A model generated the notes under the pieces. That model had not been told where the DNA came from and did not search any database. It saw only the letters and a program-made list of their open reading frames with translations. Made by a program: the position numbers and the translations under genes. From assembly GCA_009015555.1 (NCBI GenBank), contig GCA_009015555.1_3613.1: a stretch of 64,000 bases of DNA, one strand, 5' to 3'. The stretch comes from a phage. How positions within the stretch are numbered: position 1 is the first letter of the stretch; every line of letters starts with the position of its first letter. Below are positions 3,285 through 59,024 of the stretch, piece by piece.

Positions 3285-3313
3285 TTGACAAGGGGGCCGA
3301 AAGGCCCCATAAT
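3285..3313 (+). promoter_or_regulatory. sigma70-like promoter (TTGACA-17-CATAAT) with GGGGCC-GAAA-GGCCCC hairpin in spacer
   Basis: Consensus elements; same architecture repeated at 3673. Confidence 0.5.
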
Positions 3314-3672: not shown

Positions 3673-3701
3673 TTGACTCAGGGGCCGAAAGGCCCCATAA
3701 T
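3673..3701 (+). promoter_or_regulatory. sigma70-like promoter (TTGACT-17-CATAAT) with GGGGCC-GAAA-GGCCCC hairpin in spacer
   Basis: Near-identical copy of promoter at 3285. Confidence 0.5.
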
Positions 3702-3735: not shown

Positions 3736-3981
3736 ATGAACCGCCTTTTTAAAATCAATCTTCCACTTTGGACCCTGGCGGCGGTCCTCATCGCGTTTTC
3801 TGGCGATACCGTAAACAACTGGATTTTATCCGCTGTACTCGGACCCGATCAAATGGTCACAACATTTTTAAACGCTTTCGGCGCTACACTGGCAACGGCC
3901 CGCCTGGCTTATCGTCGTAAATCCTTAAACCGTTATGATCTGGCGCTGGCACTGCCTGCCCTGGTTACCTGCCTTAACTAA
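3736..3981 (+). CDS. small membrane protein (81 aa)
   Basis: Track ORF; hydrophobic N-terminal segment; followed by terminator. Confidence 0.55.
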   Translation: MNRLFKINLPLWTLAAVLIAFSGDTVNNWILSAVLGPDQMVTTFLNAFGATLATARLAYRRKSLNRYDLALALPALVTCLN

Positions 3982-3998
3982 CATCATTCAGCCAAACA

Positions 3999-4029
3999 GG
4001 CCCGCCACCCCGGCGGGCTTTTCTTTTGT
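3999..4029 (+). terminator. rho-independent terminator
   Basis: GC-rich hairpin GGCCCGCC-ACCC-CGGCGGGC followed by TTTTCTTTT. Confidence 0.6.
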
Positions 4030-4299
4030 CCCCAACGTGGCAAGCCTGGAGGGCTACCCGGTCCGACTCCCCCAGTCAATAGCCCTTATCACTTCCATTT
4101 GTGGAAATCAACACTTAATTTTATTCACTTTAAAGCGCATAATTGAATAAACGAGGGGCTAACCCACTAGCCAGGGTTGAGAGTAGCGGCCCGCATAGGG
4201 CCTTACAGCGCGTTTTAGACCCTATTGACTTCTATCTGCAAACGTGTATCAGGCCAAAACTGACTAAATCACCTTTTCTTTACATAACTTGACACTATT

Positions 4300-4950
4300 T
4301 ATTCATTTATCTGCATAATGCGAGAATGATTCTCATTTACTATCAATAACTTAACTTTTTATTGACTTCTCAGAAAACACGGTTTTACGTTCCCACGGAT
4401 CAAGGGAGGGCGCGCCGGAGGCGCGACCAATAGAAAACAGGTAACGAACCCTCCCCCGTTGCTAGCTCGCAACGGTTTAGCGTTACGTTCCCACGGTCAA
4501 GGGATGACCGCTATCACCTGTTTTCTATTGGTCATTTGAAGGTGTAAACCTTCATAAAGTCAAGCCTTTTTAGTGCCTACAGGCACAAATACGAATTATT
4601 CTCATCTGCATAAAATCGTGTTTTATCTGCATAAATACGTAAACAGGCGGACCCGTACAGCGTAGCGGGGGCCGCATAGGCCCTACAGGGCAAGGGGCTT
4701 TATTGTGCGAAAAGTAAACGAAAGCGTAGCTTTTGCCTGGCAAAATTCACTCTTCGTGTCAAGCGAAAAATAATTTTTTTTTTCTTTTTGCGTAAACGAT
4801 AATGGTTCTCATCCGACAACCATTCTCAAAGGGCGAATGCGAATCATTCTCATTATCATGCCACAAGGTGAGTGAGACTCATTCTCATCTACGCCAGTGC
4901 TGGCGGGCCTCTCCACGTGTTGGGAATGATTATCATTATCCCGAGTGCGT
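4300..4950. repeat. array of imperfect palindromes built on ATTCTCAT / ATGAGAAT half-sites plus TTATCTGCATAA direct repeats
   Basis: At least six sites, e.g. GAGAATGATTCTCAT, AATGGTTCTCAT..AACCATTCTCA, TGAGACTCATTCTCAT, ATGATTATCAT; TCTGCATAA three times. Confidence 0.5.
4381..4535. repeat. nested repeat structure: 16-bp perfect inverted repeat (CCAATAGAAAACAGGT / ACCTGTTTTCTATTGG) flanking direct repeats TTACGTTCCCACGG(A)TCAAGGGA
   Basis: Read directly; additional GGGAGGG/CCCTCCC and GCGCGCC-GGA-GGCGCGC stems inside. Confidence 0.55.
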
Positions 4951-6169
4951 ATAAGGTGTATTATGTTAAATGGGGTATGGTGGCGTGATGCACAGTCGGA
5001 CCGATGAGTCAATAAGAGAAGTGTAAAGATGGGCAAGATGGTAGACATTTTGTGGAGATGATCACGTAAAGCGAGGGCCTACCCGGTCCGATTGAGGAAA
5101 AGCTGAGAGGGGCTAAGTCATTGATTCATAAGGATATTTGGGGAAAATAACGAGGCCCCTCCCCACCCCCTGATCGCCATGCCTGGCAGCAATATCCATA
5201 CGCTGAGATATTTTTCTGGTTTCTGGGCAAGAAGGGCCACCCCTGATCGCGTTCTAAAAATTTTGGCGGGAGGGTAAAAACACCAAAAAGTCAGGGTAGG
5301 TGAGCCTCTCCGGCTCCCTTGATATTTGGGCAATGTGGGAATACAGACGGGTACGTCTCTGTGGGACGGTTACTACCCGGCGGGAGAGGGCCTCCCGGAC
5401 GGGGTGGTGCACCAGCCTGTGGCACATGAGTTATGCACAGGTCTGCCTCTTTAGGCGACAGATGTGGCTCTACAGGTTTACCACTGTGGGAAACAAAATT
5501 GTGGGAGGGAGATACAAAAATACCGCCCGAAGGCGGTTTATAGATGAATTATTTGTCCACCGTGGCTCTCATATATCTTTCGGACAGACTCCAGATTTTG
5601 GGAGTATGTGGTCTCTGTGGGGCCATCCCTTAAAGAGGATGTACCGCAGGTTAGGATTTTCTTACACTCAAGCTCCGCCTTTGTTGCCATTCCGGGTGGG
5701 AACCGATATATGAACAATGGTGTAACCGTGTGGTCTGGATTGTTCCTCTGTAGTTGCCTTATCCTAATCTTTGGTGTGTGGGTAACACCAAACTTGATGC
5801 TCCCCTCACCGACATCAAGTATGTAGGCACAGTCAGGCGACATCCTGTTGGATCTTCGGGACACGACCGCCATTTTATCACGGACTGACAAGTCAACACC
5901 TGGGTTTCTGACTAGGCCCGGCACCAATATATCCGGGCACCTTTTCCTCTCGATCGCTGCCATCTTTTGACTCTGTTCTGAGTACCACTCGTTACCCGAG
6001 ATTGTTTTGTATTTGTTCATATGCGGCCCGCCGTGGGTAATACGCGATGTGTTTGATATTGTGGTGGGCGAGGAACATAGGTCCGACTCTCCAGGTGTGT
6101 TTTCATAAGTGTTCCTCTTTGGCATGTTTGGAATATGTGGGGAGTATACCTATGTTTGGGGAAGGGGTC

Positions 6170-55477: not shown

Positions 55478-55553
55478 GCTGGATTAGCTCAGTAGGTAGA
55501 GCGCCTCACTTGTAATGAGGATGTCGCGGGTTCGATTCCTGCATCCAGCACCA
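55478..55553 (+). tRNA. tRNA-Thr (anticodon TGT)
   Basis: Cloverleaf by hand: acceptor GCTGGAT/ATCCAGC, loop CTTGTAA, T-loop GGTTCGATTCC, encoded CCA. Confidence 0.8.
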
Positions 55554-55559
55554 GATCAT

Positions 55560-55636
55560 GCAACGTTGCCGGAGTCTGGTAACGGCTCTCGCTGCAAACG
55601 AGATGAGCACTGGTTCGAATCCAGTACGTTGCTCCA
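55560..55636 (+). tRNA. tRNA-Cys (anticodon GCA)
   Basis: Acceptor GCAACGT/ACGTTGC, loop CTGCAAA, T-loop GGTTCGAATCC, CCA. Confidence 0.8.
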
Positions 55637-55637
55637 A

Positions 55638-55714
55638 GCGCCTTTGGTCCAATTGGTAGAGGCACTACATTCAAAATGTAGGGGTTCCCAGTTCGAATCT
55701 GGGAAGGCGCACCA
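55638..55714 (+). tRNA. tRNA with Leu anticodon CAA but short (5-nt) variable arm; identity uncertain
   Basis: Acceptor GCGCCTT/AAGGCGC, anticodon stem CTACA/TGTAG, loop TTCAAAA, T-arm CCCAG-TTCGAAT-CTGGG, A73, CCA. Confidence 0.55.
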
Positions 55715-55730
55715 AAATTTATGTAACCTA

Positions 55731-55759
55731 TTGACATAGTGTAATTATACTGCTAATAT
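55731..55759 (+). promoter_or_regulatory. sigma70-like promoter (TTGACA-17-TAATAT)
   Basis: Consensus -35, good -10, upstream of ORF 55786. Confidence 0.5.
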
Positions 55760-55785
55760 GGATACACTAATTCAATGGGGGCATT

Positions 55786-56160
55786 ATGAGCAAGGCTGCG
55801 ATTGTAACTCGTAAGCGTGGTCGCCCAAGCAAAGAAGAGAGCACAGCAATCGCCCTTGAAAAGGCAATGCTTGATCTCCGAGGCGAATTGGCCCGTCTGA
55901 CGCCGAAGGCCATTCATACTCTCGAAAACCTGCTCACAACAGGCACAGAGAAAGTGAAGGAAACCACGGCGAAGTATATCCTTGAGCAGGCGAAAGAGGT
56001 TAACAACCTCTATACTGAAGAGGATAACGAAGACGACGCAGCAGGCGGCACAACATCTGCCTCTTCTGAAACTCACGCTGGTTCTTCTGACGAGATGAAA
56101 AATGCCATCCCGTTGACAACCCAGATTCGTGAGTATAAAGCAGTAGGCGAAGATGATTAA
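55786..56160 (+). CDS. small basic/acidic protein with AT-hook-like RKRGRPSK motif
   Basis: Track ORF; own promoter and terminator inside tRNA cluster. Confidence 0.55.
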   Translation: MSKAAIVTRKRGRPSKEESTAIALEKAMLDLRGELARLTPKAIHTLENLLTTGTEKVKETTAKYILEQAKEVNNLYTEEDNEDDAAGGTTSASSETHAGSSDEMKNAIPLTTQIREYKAVGEDD

Positions 56161-56163
56161 CTG

Positions 56164-56190
56164 GAAGGCTCCCGAAGGAGCCTTTATTAG
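56164..56190 (+). terminator. rho-independent terminator
   Basis: AGGCTCC-CGAA-GGAGCCT then TTTATT. Confidence 0.5.
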
Positions 56191-56325
56191 AAGTTCTCTT
56201 TTGACGGGCACTTGTTAACGACCCGCAGAATGACGACGGTGTACAACGGCGTTTGATGGCGAGGAAGGTCTATAGGGATCAGCGCAGATCCTTGGATGTC
56301 AGGTGAGCCGTACAAAAGAGAATTT

Positions 56326-56413
56326 GGGGAGTTATTTCCGTAGAGGTAGCGGTGCAGACTGTAAATCTGTTGTCATTGCGACTCGGGTGGTTCGACTCCA
56401 TCACTCCCCACCA
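56326..56413 (+). tRNA. tRNA-Tyr (anticodon GTA), long variable arm
   Basis: Loop CTGTAAA, variable arm GTCATTGCGACTC, T-loop GGTTCGACTCC, CCA. Confidence 0.8.
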
Positions 56414-56419
56414 AATTAT

Positions 56420-56514
56420 AGTAGGATGGCTGAGTGGCTTAAAGCAGCATCTTGGAAAGGTGTCGGATCAGGTAACCCCTGGTCCCGGGAGTTCAAATCT
56501 CCCTCCTACTGCCA
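56420..56514 (+). tRNA. tRNA-Ser (anticodon GGA), type II
   Basis: Acceptor AGTAGGA/TCCTACT, D-loop GAGTGGCTTAA, loop TTGGAAA, long variable arm, CCA. Confidence 0.75.
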
Positions 56515-56518
56515 GACC

Positions 56519-56595
56519 GGATCGTTAGCTCAATTGGTTAGAGCAAGGGACTTTTAATCCCGAGGTTCGGGGTTCGAGTCCCTGACGGTCCACCA
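56519..56595 (+). tRNA. tRNA-Lys (anticodon TTT)
   Basis: Acceptor GGATCGT/ACGGTCC, loop CTTTTAA, T-loop GGTTCGAGTCC, CCA. Confidence 0.8.
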
Positions 56596-56760
56596 GAAAG
56601 GAAGAGGGTCCAAGCTGGTAATGCGAGAGGCGAGTCCTCAGACCAAAGCCCAGATGGAGGCCACCCTAAAGTCGTCCAACCGAAGGTCCCTGATTGAGTA
56701 ATACTTCCCCGCTTGTCGGGTACAGTTCTCAGTCACACCGGAAGGGGCGCACCCTATAAT

Positions 56761-56836
56761 TGACGGTGAGCATATAAGGACATGCGGGGGCCTGTTAAGT
56801 CCAGGATAGCTGGTTCGAATCCAGTACCGTCAGCCA
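56761..56836 (+). tRNA. tRNA-Asn (anticodon GTT)
   Basis: Acceptor TGACGGT/ACCGTCA, loop CTGTTAA, T-loop GGTTCGAATCC, CCA. Confidence 0.75.
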
Positions 56837-56945
56837 ATTTGGTTCCGACAAGGTGACGGCGCACCCCGGAGCGACGCTGAAAGATGCAGGCCGACGAACA
56901 CATACGTGTACTTAATCAATAGTCATTGCGATGGCTATTCGTTAA

Positions 56946-57023
56946 GTCCTGGTAGACAAACTGGATAAAGTCACCACCCTTTCAAGGTGGGGTTTGAGGG
57001 TTCGATCCCCTCTCAGGACGCCA
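56946..57023 (+). tRNA. tRNA-Glu (anticodon TTC)
   Basis: Anticodon stem CCACC/GGTGG, loop CTTTCAA, T-loop GGTTCGATCCC, CCA. Confidence 0.75.
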
Positions 57024-57117
57024 ATCTTTTAGGTCGGTAGATTAATGAGCAAAGGCCGCTCGCTGGATTCCAACCCCAGTTCAAGGCGTTCGATTCGTCA
57101 CCTTCCTGCCAAATTCA

Positions 57118-57193
57118 GGTCCTATGGTATTAGCGGTAAACATACTCGCCTGTCACGCGAGAGTCACGGGTTCGAATCCCGTTAGGACCGCCA
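57118..57193 (+). tRNA. tRNA-Asp (anticodon GTC)
   Basis: Acceptor GGTCCTA/TAGGACC, loop CTGTCAC, T-loop GGTTCGAATCC, CCA. Confidence 0.8.
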
Positions 57194-57200
57194 CTTCAAA

Positions 57201-57275
57201 TGGGGATTAGCTCAGGGGTAGAGCGCACAACTGATAATTGTGAGGTCGGTGGTTCGAAACCACCATCCCCAACCA
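57201..57275 (+). tRNA. tRNA-Ile (anticodon GAT)
   Basis: Acceptor TGGGGAT/ATCCCCA, loop CTGATAA, T-loop GGTTCGAAACC, CCA. Confidence 0.8.
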
Positions 57276-57345
57276 AACAGCCCCTCCCGGGATTGGACCG
57301 GGTTAACGGCAATCGCACACTGAGGCGTCTTCCGGGGGAACAATA

Positions 57346-57422
<77 letters not shown>

Positions 57423-57428
57423 AATTAT

Positions 57429-57503
57429 TGCGAGGTAGTTCAGCGGTAGAACAGGGGTTTCATACGCCTCATGTCGGCAGTTCGATTCTGCCCTTCGCAA
57501 CCA
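57429..57503 (+). tRNA. tRNA-Met (anticodon CAT; initiator/elongator/Ile-lysidine not resolved)
   Basis: Acceptor TGCGAGG/CTTCGCA, loop TTCATAC, T-loop AGTTCGATTCT, CCA. Confidence 0.7.
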
Positions 57504-57509
57504 AATCAT

Positions 57510-57587
57510 GCTCCAGTAGCCCAATTGGTAGAGGCACTTGATTTAGGATCATGTCAGCGATGAGTTCGAATCTCTCCTGGAGTACCA
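57510..57587 (+). tRNA. tRNA-like gene with Leu anticodon TAG, short variable arm and weak T-stem; identity uncertain
   Basis: Acceptor GCTCCAG/CTGGAGT, D-arm CCAATTGGTAGAGG shared with 55638 tRNA, loop TTTAGGA, A73, CCA. Confidence 0.45.
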
Positions 57588-57593
57588 CATAAA

Positions 57594-57667
57594 GCGGGCA
57601 TGGTATAGTGGTTGTGCCTTAGCCTTCCAAGCTAATGAGTCCGGTTCGATCCCGGATGTCCGCTCCA
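57594..57667 (+). tRNA. tRNA-Gly (anticodon TCC)
   Basis: Acceptor GCGGGCA/TGTCCGC, stem TTAGC/GCTAA, loop CTTCCAA, T-loop GGTTCGATCCC, CCA. Confidence 0.8.
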
Positions 57668-57740
57668 ATTCACGGTGAGTCACTGCCGTTAAGTGTGAAG
57701 TTAAAAATGCCCGTGGTGATCGGGTTATCTCACCCAGTGT

Positions 57741-57816
57741 AGGGGATTAGTTTAATTGGTAAAACATCGGGTTTTGATCCCGACATCGCGAGGTTCGAAT
57801 CCTCCATCCCCCGCCA
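57741..57816 (+). tRNA. tRNA-Gln (anticodon TTG)
   Basis: Stem TCGGG/CCCGA, loop TTTTGAT, T-loop GGTTCGAATCC, CCA; 1-72 is A-C mismatch. Confidence 0.7.
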
Positions 57817-57898
57817 CATTAATGCTCATTAGCTCTTGTCAGTGGAACTCGAACCCTTAGAGCAGGCGACACAGACGTGTGTTTTAGTGAGCATCAAT

Positions 57899-57974
57899 GT
57901 GGCCTTAATTCAGCAGGTAGAATCCCCGGTTGTGAACCGGGCAGTCGTGGGTTCAAGTCCCACAGGTCACCCCA
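57899..57974 (+). tRNA. tRNA-His (anticodon GTG)
   Basis: Acceptor GTGGCCT/AGGTCAC, stem CCCGG/CCGGG, loop TTGTGAA, C73, CCA. Confidence 0.8.
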
Positions 57975-57978
57975 ATCT

Positions 57979-58071
57979 GGAAGATAGGGCGTAGTGGTAC
58001 GCACCCGGATTTGAACCCCGGCCCGCTGTGGCGACCCCACGGTGATAGTTCGACTCTATTATCTTCCGCCA
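57979..58071 (+). tRNA. tRNA-Ser (anticodon TGA), type II
   Basis: Collinear with bacterial tRNA-Ser(UGA): acceptor GGAAGAT, loop TTTGAAC, long variable arm, ...TTCC-G-CCA end. Confidence 0.7.
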
Positions 58072-58092
58072 CCCCTGATCATAAGGCAAACT

Positions 58093-58785
58093 ATGTTAGA
58101 AATGTTAACAGTGGGTAAATACACCCCTAGTCCTATAATTTCTAGCCCTATGGATGCTTATTTTGAGGGCGAGAGGAATAATAAATACGGCACTGTTGAG
58201 TGGGTTGTTCCTCAAGGCGTCACCTCAATCTGCTGTGTAGTGATAGGCGCAGGATCTTCTGGCAGAAGCGGCGGTCTTTCTTGGAGAAACAACATTCCAG
58301 TTACACCTGGTGAAAAACTTAAAATGCAGGTTAACTCCACAGCCAGCGCCCTCTTGAGAGAGACAACTATCCTTTGTGCTGCCCAGTGTGGCGGCAACGG
58401 AGGAAAAACATATAACTCTGTGAACGACGGTGGAGGCAATGCTGGACAATCACCACATGGTAGAGGTGGTGCTGGCGGCTACACCGGGAATGGTGGTGAT
58501 GGGCATACGTTCACAGGTGGTCCAGGACCAGGGTCCCCAGGTTCAGGTGGCGGCGGCGGCGGAGGCGCAGTTGTGTATCTGAACGGATCATTGACACCAA
58601 CTGTCTGCGGCGGAGTCGGCATGTATGGACAGGGGTCGAATGGTGGCGCTGATAACAGCGCCGGATATCCAGGCTCCGGCGGTTCTGGAACAAGATACGG
58701 AAGAGCAGTCGATGGTTATGGTGTTGTCAGGGTTGTGTGGGGAAATTATTCATTCCCAACAAATGCCCCGAGACCGAAATCCTGA
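58093..58785 (+). CDS. glycine-rich repeat protein (GGxGG tracts, poly-Gly run) embedded in tRNA cluster
   Basis: Track ORF 58042..58785; start at ATG after AAGG just downstream of tRNA-Ser. Confidence 0.5.
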   Translation: MLEMLTVGKYTPSPIISSPMDAYFEGERNNKYGTVEWVVPQGVTSICCVVIGAGSSGRSGGLSWRNNIPVTPGEKLKMQVNSTASALLRETTILCAAQCGGNGGKTYNSVNDGGGNAGQSPHGRGGAGGYTGNGGDGHTFTGGPGPGSPGSGGGGGGGAVVYLNGSLTPTVCGGVGMYGQGSNGGADNSAGYPGSGGSGTRYGRAVDGYGVVRVVWGNYSFPTNAPRPKS

Positions 58786-58856
58786 TAGGGATGGTCCCTA
58801 CGAGGATCGTCTTTTGCTCAGTGGTACTCAGCATTTACTTAGTATTCAAACAATAT

Positions 58857-58943
58857 AGAAGAGTGGCGAAATAGGTAGCCGCACCGGACTGCTAATCCGG
58901 GGTCCTTCGGGGCCTGAGAGTTCAAGTCTCTCCTCTTCTGCCA
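58857..58943 (+). tRNA. tRNA-Ser (anticodon GCT), type II
   Basis: Acceptor AGAAGAG/CTCTTCT, stem CCGGA/TCCGG, loop CTGCTAA, long variable arm, CCA. Confidence 0.75.
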
Positions 58944-58948
58944 AGCAT

Positions 58949-59024
58949 GGAACTGTAGCTCAGTTGGTAGAGCGGTTGCCTGAAGAGCAGCGCGTCAGCG
59001 GTTCAAATCCGTTCAGTTCCACCA
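58949..59024 (+). tRNA. tRNA-Phe (anticodon GAA)
   Basis: Acceptor GGAACTG/CAGTTCC, D-arm TAGCTCAGTTGGTAGAGC, loop CTGAAGA, T-loop GGTTCAAATCC, CCA. Confidence 0.8.

Follow-up and report, generated by a model that had tools for sequence, protein, structure and literature searches.

In a 64,000-nt stretch of phage DNA (assembly GCA_009015555.1, contig GCA_009015555.1_3613.1; called the window below, with all coordinates counted within it), we found a branched palindromic element at 4381-4535 that is most likely a DNA hairpin in genome-end processing or replication. The reading we prefer, at a rough probability of 0.4, is a cis-acting branched DNA palindrome that would serve concatemer-end processing or packaging. 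Its chief rivals are a structured RNA and a site that primes replication. The window belongs to a Certrevirus, an rV5-like myophage of the subfamily Vequintavirinae, and its nearest record is Cronobacter phage CR3, with 91% identity across the region. The element lies inside a gap of about 1.1 kb without genes (3982 to ~5100). Its structure is preserved while its sequence evolves, homologues are found across lineages, and in relatives it keeps a fixed position relative to the terminal repeat and to a dif-like XerC/XerD site. The parts of the element are as follows.

4385-4407 (+): direct repeat copy 1 (TTACGTTCCCACGGATCAAGGGA), outside the long stem
4390-4394 with 4404-4408: hairpin H1 within repeat copy 1, TTCCC with GGGAG, invariant among relatives
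4411-4425: GC hairpin H2, CGCGCC-GGA-GGCGCG, abutting the left arm, G4425 being common to both
4425-4442: left arm of the 18-bp inverted repeat (long stem)
4443-4489: inner branch 1, AACGAA (4443-4448) with TT[A]CGTT (4483-4489, where repeat copy 2 begins), then a short stem with H4
4456-4475: hairpin H4, CCGTTGC (4456-4462), loop TAGCTC, GCAACGG (4469-4475)
4483-4504 (+): direct repeat copy 2 (TTACGTTCCCACGGTCAAGGGA), inside the long stem
4494-4510: inner branch 2, hairpin H5, CGGTCA-AGGGA-TGACCG, built from the 3' part of repeat copy 2
4516-4533: right arm of the 18-bp inverted repeat
4537-4564 (+): hairpin H6, TGAAGGT-GTAA-ACCTTCA, followed by the near-invariant AAAGTCAAG

The two arms, GACCAATAGAAAACAGGT (4425-4442) and ACCTGTTTTCTATTGGTC (4516-4533), are 100% complementary across a spacer of 73 nt. 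A first-pass annotation of this DNA had described a perfect inverted repeat of 16 bp; the perfect pairing stood, but the length is really 18 bp. No other inverted repeat of at least 14 nt was found in the window (12-nt seed, arms at most 400 nt apart), and the chance expectation of such a repeat is about 4e-4 by our own arithmetic. The observation is confirmed, far beyond chance. The direct repeat of 22-23 nt was also recovered as described, its copies lying on the outer and on the inner side of the left arm: TTACGTTCCCACGG is exact over 14 nt at 4385 and 4483 and after a 1-nt indel goes on as (A)TCAAGGGA, with no third copy in the window. The motif GTCAAG is found again at 4497 and 4559, and in the form GATCAAG at 4398. 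The window contained 408 GATC sites (6.4 per kb against about 3.9 expected) and region 4000-5100 only two, one of which is the GATC that sets repeat copy 1 apart from copy 2.

The two GC-rich stems proposed at first pass fared less well. The stem GCGCGCC-GGA-GGCGCGC is present over 6 bp (CGCGCC at 4411-4416, GGA, GGCGCG at 4420-4425), but its seventh pair is a G.A mismatch. Both strings of GGGAGGG/CCCTCCC exist (4404-4410 and 4449-4455), but full pairing was seen in only 4 of 16 aligned relatives; the remaining ones have at most three contiguous pairs without compensation, and this stem competes with covarying helices. Folded as RNA, the segment was far more stable than its shuffles on both strands (z -6.6 and -7.2), and with DNA parameters it reached -41.2 and -44.6 kcal/mol (z -7.1 and -8.1 on the two strands).

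The GenBank record of Cronobacter phage PBES 02 (KT353109) ends with ...GACCAATAGAAAACAGG and starts with CCTGTTTTCTATTGGTC..., cut exactly at both arms and with the 73-nt loop missing. The palindrome is the most likely cause of this break in the assembly. A break at the arms fits a hairpin that disturbs sequencing or assembly, and we counted it in favour of the DNA palindrome.

The element was present in all 26 related phage records found (26/26), and also in two more IMG/VR contigs and one new metagenome contig. The best-conserved stretches of the region are 4285-4434 and 4485-4534, which exceed the ends of the flanking genes in conservation. SSBI34 is a distant, unclassified phage in which megablast still detected a stretch of about 190 bp over the element and nothing else of the gap. 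Absence or lack of conservation in close relatives, which would have refuted the first-pass annotation, is clearly not what we see. From the scans of IMG/VR and metagenomes came only three new Certrevirus-type variants and one new Mydovirus-like arm variant; the 14-base pattern scan was too unspecific and returned mostly chance matches.

The consensus fold and the covariation count were made on 16 Certrevirus-type sequences. The fold comprises H1, H2, the 18-bp long stem, its coaxial extension (AACGRA with TY[A]CGTT), the short stem with H4, and H5. Through this comparison, 98.5% of the cells were found to pair and nine pairs had changed on both sides. In 500 shuffles, the observed number of paired cells, the pairs or cells changed on both sides and the covariation score were never attained, and controls in which the alignment was slid gave at most two pairs changed on both sides. 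Across 17 related sequences, in which the element is conserved, compensatory changes were found in four helices. Of the long stem there are three compensated variants (CAGG/CCTG, -GGG/CCC- and GGGG/CCCC), of which GGGG/CCCC also occurs on another inner haplotype in a metagenome contig, while the proximal 13 bp of both arms are invariant within Certrevirus. H4 occurs in four compensated stem variants among relatives, and the stem sequence of H6 is entirely different between relatives with the pairing retained. At the junction 5' of the right arm, phiTE and CB7 carry a 33-nt expansion of ACCGCTWAT-type units, and one IMG/VR contig and SSBI34 carry a shorter one, so that a change of length is tolerated there.

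Elements of the same layout were found in Vequintavirus, Seunavirus, Mydovirus and Henunavirus, which together with Certrevirus and SSBI34 makes six lineages:

EdH4 (Vequintavirus): 20-nt repeat in 2 copies, perfect stem of 18 bp, GC hairpin CGCGAC-GGA-GTCGCG
PVP-SE1 (Seunavirus): repeat TCGTTCGCGTKATCGTGG in 2 copies, perfect stem of 18 bp
Mydo and KPP-1 (Mydovirus): repeat as in PVP-SE1, perfect stem of 21 bp
Hena1 (Henunavirus): repeat GTTCGCGTTATC in 2 copies, perfect stem of 22 bp
pEp_SNUABM_01 (Henunavirus): repeat as in Hena1, perfect stem of 21 bp

Alignment of the 5' halves revealed a common order of repeat copy 1, GC hairpin, an arm of the form GAC...ATA.AAA, and GTAAC, with the right arm later. 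The GC hairpin of EdH4 differs from H2 of the window by one compensated pair, and the stems of Hena1 and pEp_SNUABM_01 differ by four substitutions, all fully compensated. The second repeat copy lies inside the stem in the Henunavirus, Seunavirus and Mydovirus phages, as in the window, and just past the right arm in EdH4. In the other genera an inverted third repeat copy pairs with copy 2 as a nested stem of 13 bp, in which copy 1 could substitute. The layout of H6 plus GTCAAG recurs in Hena1. The spacing of the arms ranges from 73 to 217 nt across the elements.

The place of the element near the genome end is known from these relatives, whose direct terminal repeats measure 459-519 bp. The repeat of Hena1 is annotated (519 bp) and that of EdH4 is duplicated at both ends of the record (459 bp); in KPP-1, a repeat of 514 bp is supported by doubled read coverage and by PhageTerm, with packaging of the T7 type. 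From the end of the right arm to the left boundary of the repeat we measured 200 bp in EdH4, 261 bp in Hena1 and 309 bp in KPP-1. The left boundaries of Hena1 and KPP-1, which were determined independently, share the motif GCTA/AACAC (the slash marks the cut), located 19 nt before a conserved TGTCAAG. Two corresponding sites are present in the window:

4738-4763 (+): probable homologue of the left boundary of the terminal repeat, where the window reads ...GCAAAATTCACTCTTCGTGTCAAG
4944-4971 (+): dif-like XerC/XerD site AGTGCGTATAA-GGTGTA-TTATGTTAAAT, with a perfect XerD arm

We infer that this phage would share the end structure of its relatives, with the boundary at about 4738. The boundary homologue of the window (...AATTCACTCTTCGTGTCAAG) differs from GCTA/AACAC in the bases of the cut site. 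A direct repeat, CTACCCGGTCCGA, brackets the whole gap (~4057-4069 and 5080-5092) and resembles TGTCCGTC/, the right-boundary motif of the Hena1 and KPP-1 terminal repeats.

Whether such a structure acts as DNA or as RNA may be judged from its arms. Nine distinct arm pairs of 17-22 bp each, 172 bp in all, contained only Watson-Crick pairs, with no G.T pair and no mismatch. If G.U pairs were tolerated at the frequency of about 5% or more that is usual in RNA helices, we would consider their complete absence from 172 bp very unlikely. In all eight elements compared from the six lineages (8/8), the fold of the minus strand is at most 1 kcal/mol less stable than that of the plus strand, and the element keeps its place with respect to the genome end as the sequence diverges. 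Perfect arms, no strand bias, a DNA fold on both strands and a fixed position together favour a fold-back at the DNA level over a strand-specific RNA. The favoured interpretation is a DNA fold-back, formed by one strand or the other or as a cruciform, or else a process in which such fold-back preserves the identity of the arms; we infer that DNA rather than RNA would be the active form, and with it the particular biochemical step.

The proposed mechanism is as follows. A long perfect stem closes around two small inner hairpins and leaves the GC hairpin and a spare 22-nt repeat copy outside the left arm. The element would occupy the last few hundred bases of unique sequence before a short direct terminal repeat, that is, the concatemer junction. 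Where the DNA of this junction becomes single-stranded or torsionally stressed, either strand might snap into a Y-shaped hairpin or the duplex into a cruciform, and the hairpin, with the repeat copies and the GTCAAG motifs as putative protein-binding sites, might mark or process the junction. Terminase loading, cleavage of the junction by a structure-specific nuclease, and self-primed fill-in that duplicates the terminal repeat are candidate roles. We propose a role in end processing or the initiation of packaging from the location at the concatemer junction, the T7-like packaging of a relative and the hairpin end proposed for T7.

Several facts weigh against this proposal. Certrevirus and SSBI34 share the 62-nt 5' half with 100% identity, which demands a sequence-specific reader. 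The G.T pairs of H6, in the phiTE-type and SSBI34 variants, can form on the plus strand only, in keeping with an RNA or with a single strand specific to the plus strand. At its right end T7 carries no more than imperfect inverted repeats of 10-12 nt, against perfect stems of 18-22 bp with nested hairpins here. Circular permutation without excess read depth was reported for phiTE and CB7, both of them Certrevirus, and a fixed terminal repeat in this phage therefore rests on homology. Finally, a promoter-like block conserved at 98-99% among relatives is directed into the element. It is the first of three sites on the left side:

4289-4319 (+): promoter-like block TTGACA-N19-CATAAT, directed at the element
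4322-4334: Fur-box-like 6-1-6 palindrome GAGAATGATTCTC, directly 3' of the promoter-like block
4341-4353 (+): perfect IHF consensus TATCAATAACTTA (WATCAANNNNTTR), conserved in the Certrevirus alignment

The promoter-like block makes it conceivable, though we consider it doubtful, that a structured RNA, non-coding and about 200-240 nt long, is transcribed from 4289-4319, alone or as one of a sense/antisense pair and possibly repressed in the manner of Fur. Such an RNA might act through a phage or host protein bound via the two repeat copies, or through a switch of fold in which copies 1 and 2 vie for the same partners. This would agree with the conserved block and the palindrome at the expected transcription start, with the strong covariation and the z of -6.6 of the RNA fold, and with the confinement of the H6 G.U pairs to the plus strand. 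The two direct repeats are complementary to single internal segments, which is reminiscent of the c4 locus of P1 and the CI locus of P4. But the spacer has 19 nt where other sigma-70-like sites of this phage have 1-2 nt less, the block was not reported by the consensus promoter scan, and in other genera nothing like this promoter is evident 5' of the homologues. On the minus strand, a sigma-70-like candidate (TTGACT at 4563-4558, N18, TCAAAT), from which an antisense RNA would start, has conserved -35 and UP-like parts and a -10 part that is poor except in SSBI34, and it gave no match in the promoter scan.

Other data speak against an RNA as well. No intrinsic terminator was found beside the element on either strand, the long stem being followed at its 3' side by ATTTG. 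Zero G.U pairs in the 172 bp of long-stem variants and a minus strand that folds as well or better throughout do not suit a strand-specific transcript. A perfect RNA duplex of 18-24 bp is a substrate of RNase III, which we counted against this explanation. At gathering thresholds only tRNAs passed Rfam, and with E values up to 10 the sole match over the element in region 3950-5150 was RsmY, at 10.6 bits against a gathering threshold of 57. C4 antisense RNA, RNAI and the ribozymes were among the families without a match. The pseudoknotted RNA domain suggested at first pass is not borne out: its pseudoknot stem GGGAGGG/CCCTCCC is not conserved, and no RNA family matches.

As to the palindrome at 4322-4334, Fur-box-like 6-1-6 palindromes (GAGAATnATTCTC) with at most three mismatches were found 19 times in the window, with 2.2 expected. 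Counted by strand, 13 of the 19 cluster in 4320-4940, and the others include those at 1451 and 2556. The sequence GGGAATGATTATCATTATC at 4922 matches 16 of 19 positions of the 19-bp Fur consensus, and Fur-like boxes are likewise present in the terminal repeats of EdH4, Hena1, PVP-SE1 and KPP-1. In two other sigma-70-like promoters of the window (3285-3313 and 3673-3701) the spacer contains a GC hairpin (TTGACA/T-..GGGGCCGAAAGGCCCC-ATAAT), and each lies immediately 3' of the stop codon of the preceding small gene.

We also considered that the element might serve replication, as an origin or as a site of single-strand initiation (priming). The hairpin would then recreate duplex sites or a structure resembling a promoter for primase, RNA polymerase or PriA, and the repeats would serve as iterons. 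The non-coding gap with its perfect IHF consensus would suit such a function; this IHF site is one of six in the window (1/6) and lies between the promoter-like block and the element. Weak DnaA-box-like 9-mers show a 4.7-fold excess in the gap, and an A/T run is present at 4768-4792. Three repeat copies in other genera (two direct and one inverted), folding of both strands, and a Y shape like that of parvovirus terminal hairpins and single-strand origins also agree. Nevertheless we regard a replication element as unlikely, since the surroundings look like a terminus and not like an origin: plus-strand genes stop at the left border of the gap and minus-strand genes at the right, so that the gene blocks converge, and the cumulative GC skew is maximal at the gap. 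Every DnaA-like match carries a mismatch, and no initiator gene is adjacent, the neighbours being small hypothetical genes. Of the replication-origin hairpin named in the first-pass annotation, the DNA hairpin is favoured by the perfect arms, the lack of strand asymmetry and the fixed position, and an origin would be the less likely option in view of the terminus-like layout. The first-pass interpretation is partly supported, as regards a hairpin, which is probably of DNA.

The database records of the gap hold no meaningful annotation. A strong terminator at 3998-4020, at the left edge, is the sole plus-strand terminator-like site in the gap. Two hairpins with a GCATA loop (GGCCCGCATAGGGCC at 4188-4203 and GGGCCGCATAGGCCC at 4669-4684) were found in similar contexts (GTAGCGG...TACAG), the first about 200 bp before the element and the second about 140 bp after it. 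Far from the gap, 18 tRNA genes are clustered at 55478-59024 on the plus strand.

The dif-like site at 4944-4971 lies 411 bp downstream of the element. The dif sequence of E. coli is GGTGCGCATAA-TGTATA-TTATGTTAAAT, and the phage site agrees with it at 24 of 28 positions. It occurs once in the window and was not met in shuffles. We found dif-like sites in 285 phage records, nearly all Vequintavirinae; the query also matches CTX phage records. Both arms of the EdH4 site are identical to those of E. coli dif. Wherever the terminal repeat is known (Hena1, EdH4 and KPP-1) the site falls within it, at 290-319 of the Hena1 repeat and at 116523-116556 in KPP-1, and the element is always on the XerC-arm side in every lineage examined. 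The literature search revealed no paper linking these phages with Xer or dif. Host XerCD could circularise or resolve the phage genome at this putative site. The element itself was suggested at first pass to be a recombination or resolution site, which is not supported: 4381-4535 has neither an XerCD-type core nor that of another recombinase, and only the dif-like site downstream is of this kind.

Two further explanations involve this site. In one, a parvovirus-like, self-priming Y-shaped hairpin of large lytic rV5-like myophages would copy or process the terminal repeat together with host XerCD, which would act at the dif site inside the repeat to circularise or resolve the genome after injection or during replication; we hold this combination to be quite unlikely. 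In the other, which we regard as improbable, the arms would be inverted copies of one recognition site, comparable to transposon ends or accessory sites, bound by the same protein without any fold-back, and would serve DNA looping or aid Xer recombination. Identical inverted sites would co-evolve with one binding protein, the dif-like site is 411 bp off, and the invariance of the proximal 13 bp within Certrevirus would be understandable. But identity at all 17-22 positions in nine variants exceeds the usual needs of protein recognition, the spacer is filled with covarying nested hairpins, and the arm spacing of 73 to 217 nt is poorly compatible with such sites. Known Xer accessory regions occupy about 160-190 bp beside the core, in contrast to the distance of more than 400 bp here, which we also counted against paired sites.

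That the element mimics a CRISPR repeat, as an RNA anti-CRISPR or as a regulator resembling a CRISPR RNA, is hardly credible. Repeat copy 2 with its tail (GTTCCCACGGTCAAGGGATGACCG) resembles the type I-E repeat GTGTTCCCCACGGGTGTGGGGATGAACCG by eye, and such mimics exist in phages. However, the local-alignment score of 24 is equalled or beaten elsewhere in the window (best 30), which is chance level; the repeat hairpin is cut to 4 bp, the repeats are spaced by 98 nt, and these phages are absent from those supplementary lists of the anti-CRISPR paper that were searched.

Several known families were tried and rejected. A mimic of a host RNA or a plasmid origin was dismissed, as nothing similar to the element was found in 5,426 E. 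coli genomes and 72,556 plasmids. The 17-mer of the repeat gave 39 matches in 596 Gb of bacterial genomes, which is the chance frequency, and none was accompanied by other features. A type III antitoxin RNA (ToxI or pseudo-ToxI, with tandem repeats of 34-45 nt) does not apply: no ToxI-like sequence was revealed in the phiTE gap or in the window, and the repeats here are 98 nt apart. A miniature transposable element or insertion sequence was rejected because the element is single-copy in the window, has no flanking duplication and is syntenic in all relatives. The element is also not an intrinsic terminator, as a GC-rich hairpin with a T run is lacking and the long stem is followed by ATTTG. 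A closing helix of 5' GGTTT with 3' AAGCC was dropped, being supported by eye in the window and SSBI34 only.

The Certrevirus genome papers searched for the element, on CB7 and P7_Pc, do not describe it, nor is it described in the other papers and annotated records searched; it is best filed under a known class, the cis-acting palindromic DNA at phage genome ends. How two copies of a terminal repeat are regenerated from the single copy in a concatemer is an unsettled question, even for T7, and the proposed hairpin intermediate was never tied to a defined, conserved sequence. The element is a well-defined candidate, being unique in the genome, present in six lineages, changed only by fully compensated evolution and fixed in place before the repeat. 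Together with the near-perfect dif site and the cluster of Fur-box-like sequences, it suggests that host DNA-handling proteins may be used at the genome ends. If a self-priming hairpin does work with host dif, this would be a previously undescribed module of end maintenance, joining a structure of the rolling-hairpin type to hijacked chromosome dimer resolution. The phages concerned are therapeutic candidates against Cronobacter, Enterobacter, Klebsiella, Salmonella, E. coli, Pectobacterium and Erwinia, and since the element breaks assemblies, as in PBES 02, it is relevant to genome finishing.

Among known systems, the T-shaped inverted terminal repeat of the parvovirus adeno-associated virus (AAV) ends a single-stranded genome and primes rolling-hairpin replication. 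The present element is like it in having an outer palindrome around two small inner ones, a repeated protein-binding motif (putative here) in or beside the stem, and two foldable strands; it is unlike it in being internal, 200-400 bp from the end, in a double-stranded genome of 150 kb. The antisense RNAs of P1 c4 and P4 CI (Rfam C4) likewise belong to structured non-coding regions of phages, with direct repeats complementary to one internal segment. However, no Rfam model matches our element, those RNAs control the immunity of temperate phages, and the long stem here is without the signature of a strand-specific RNA. In the CTX phage, the forked hairpin of attP, used with XerCD and dif, is a folded single-stranded DNA hairpin tied to Xer, and here a dif-like site lies 411 bp from the element; unlike attP, the arms of the element include no binding arm for XerC or XerD.

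The nearest functional parallel is with T7, for which a hairpin end on concatemers was reportedly proposed as a processing intermediate (Chung, Nardone and Hinkle 1990, J Mol Biol 216:939). T7 shares with these phages short direct terminal repeats, cis-acting DNA (putative here) in the last unique sequence before the repeat and a proposed fold-back DNA end, and KPP-1, a relative of this phage, was typed as packaging in the T7 manner. The two differ in that Certrevirus phages were reported as circularly permuted, that a hairpin intermediate in Vequintavirinae is putative, and that no sequence relationship exists, so that the parallel is one of function.

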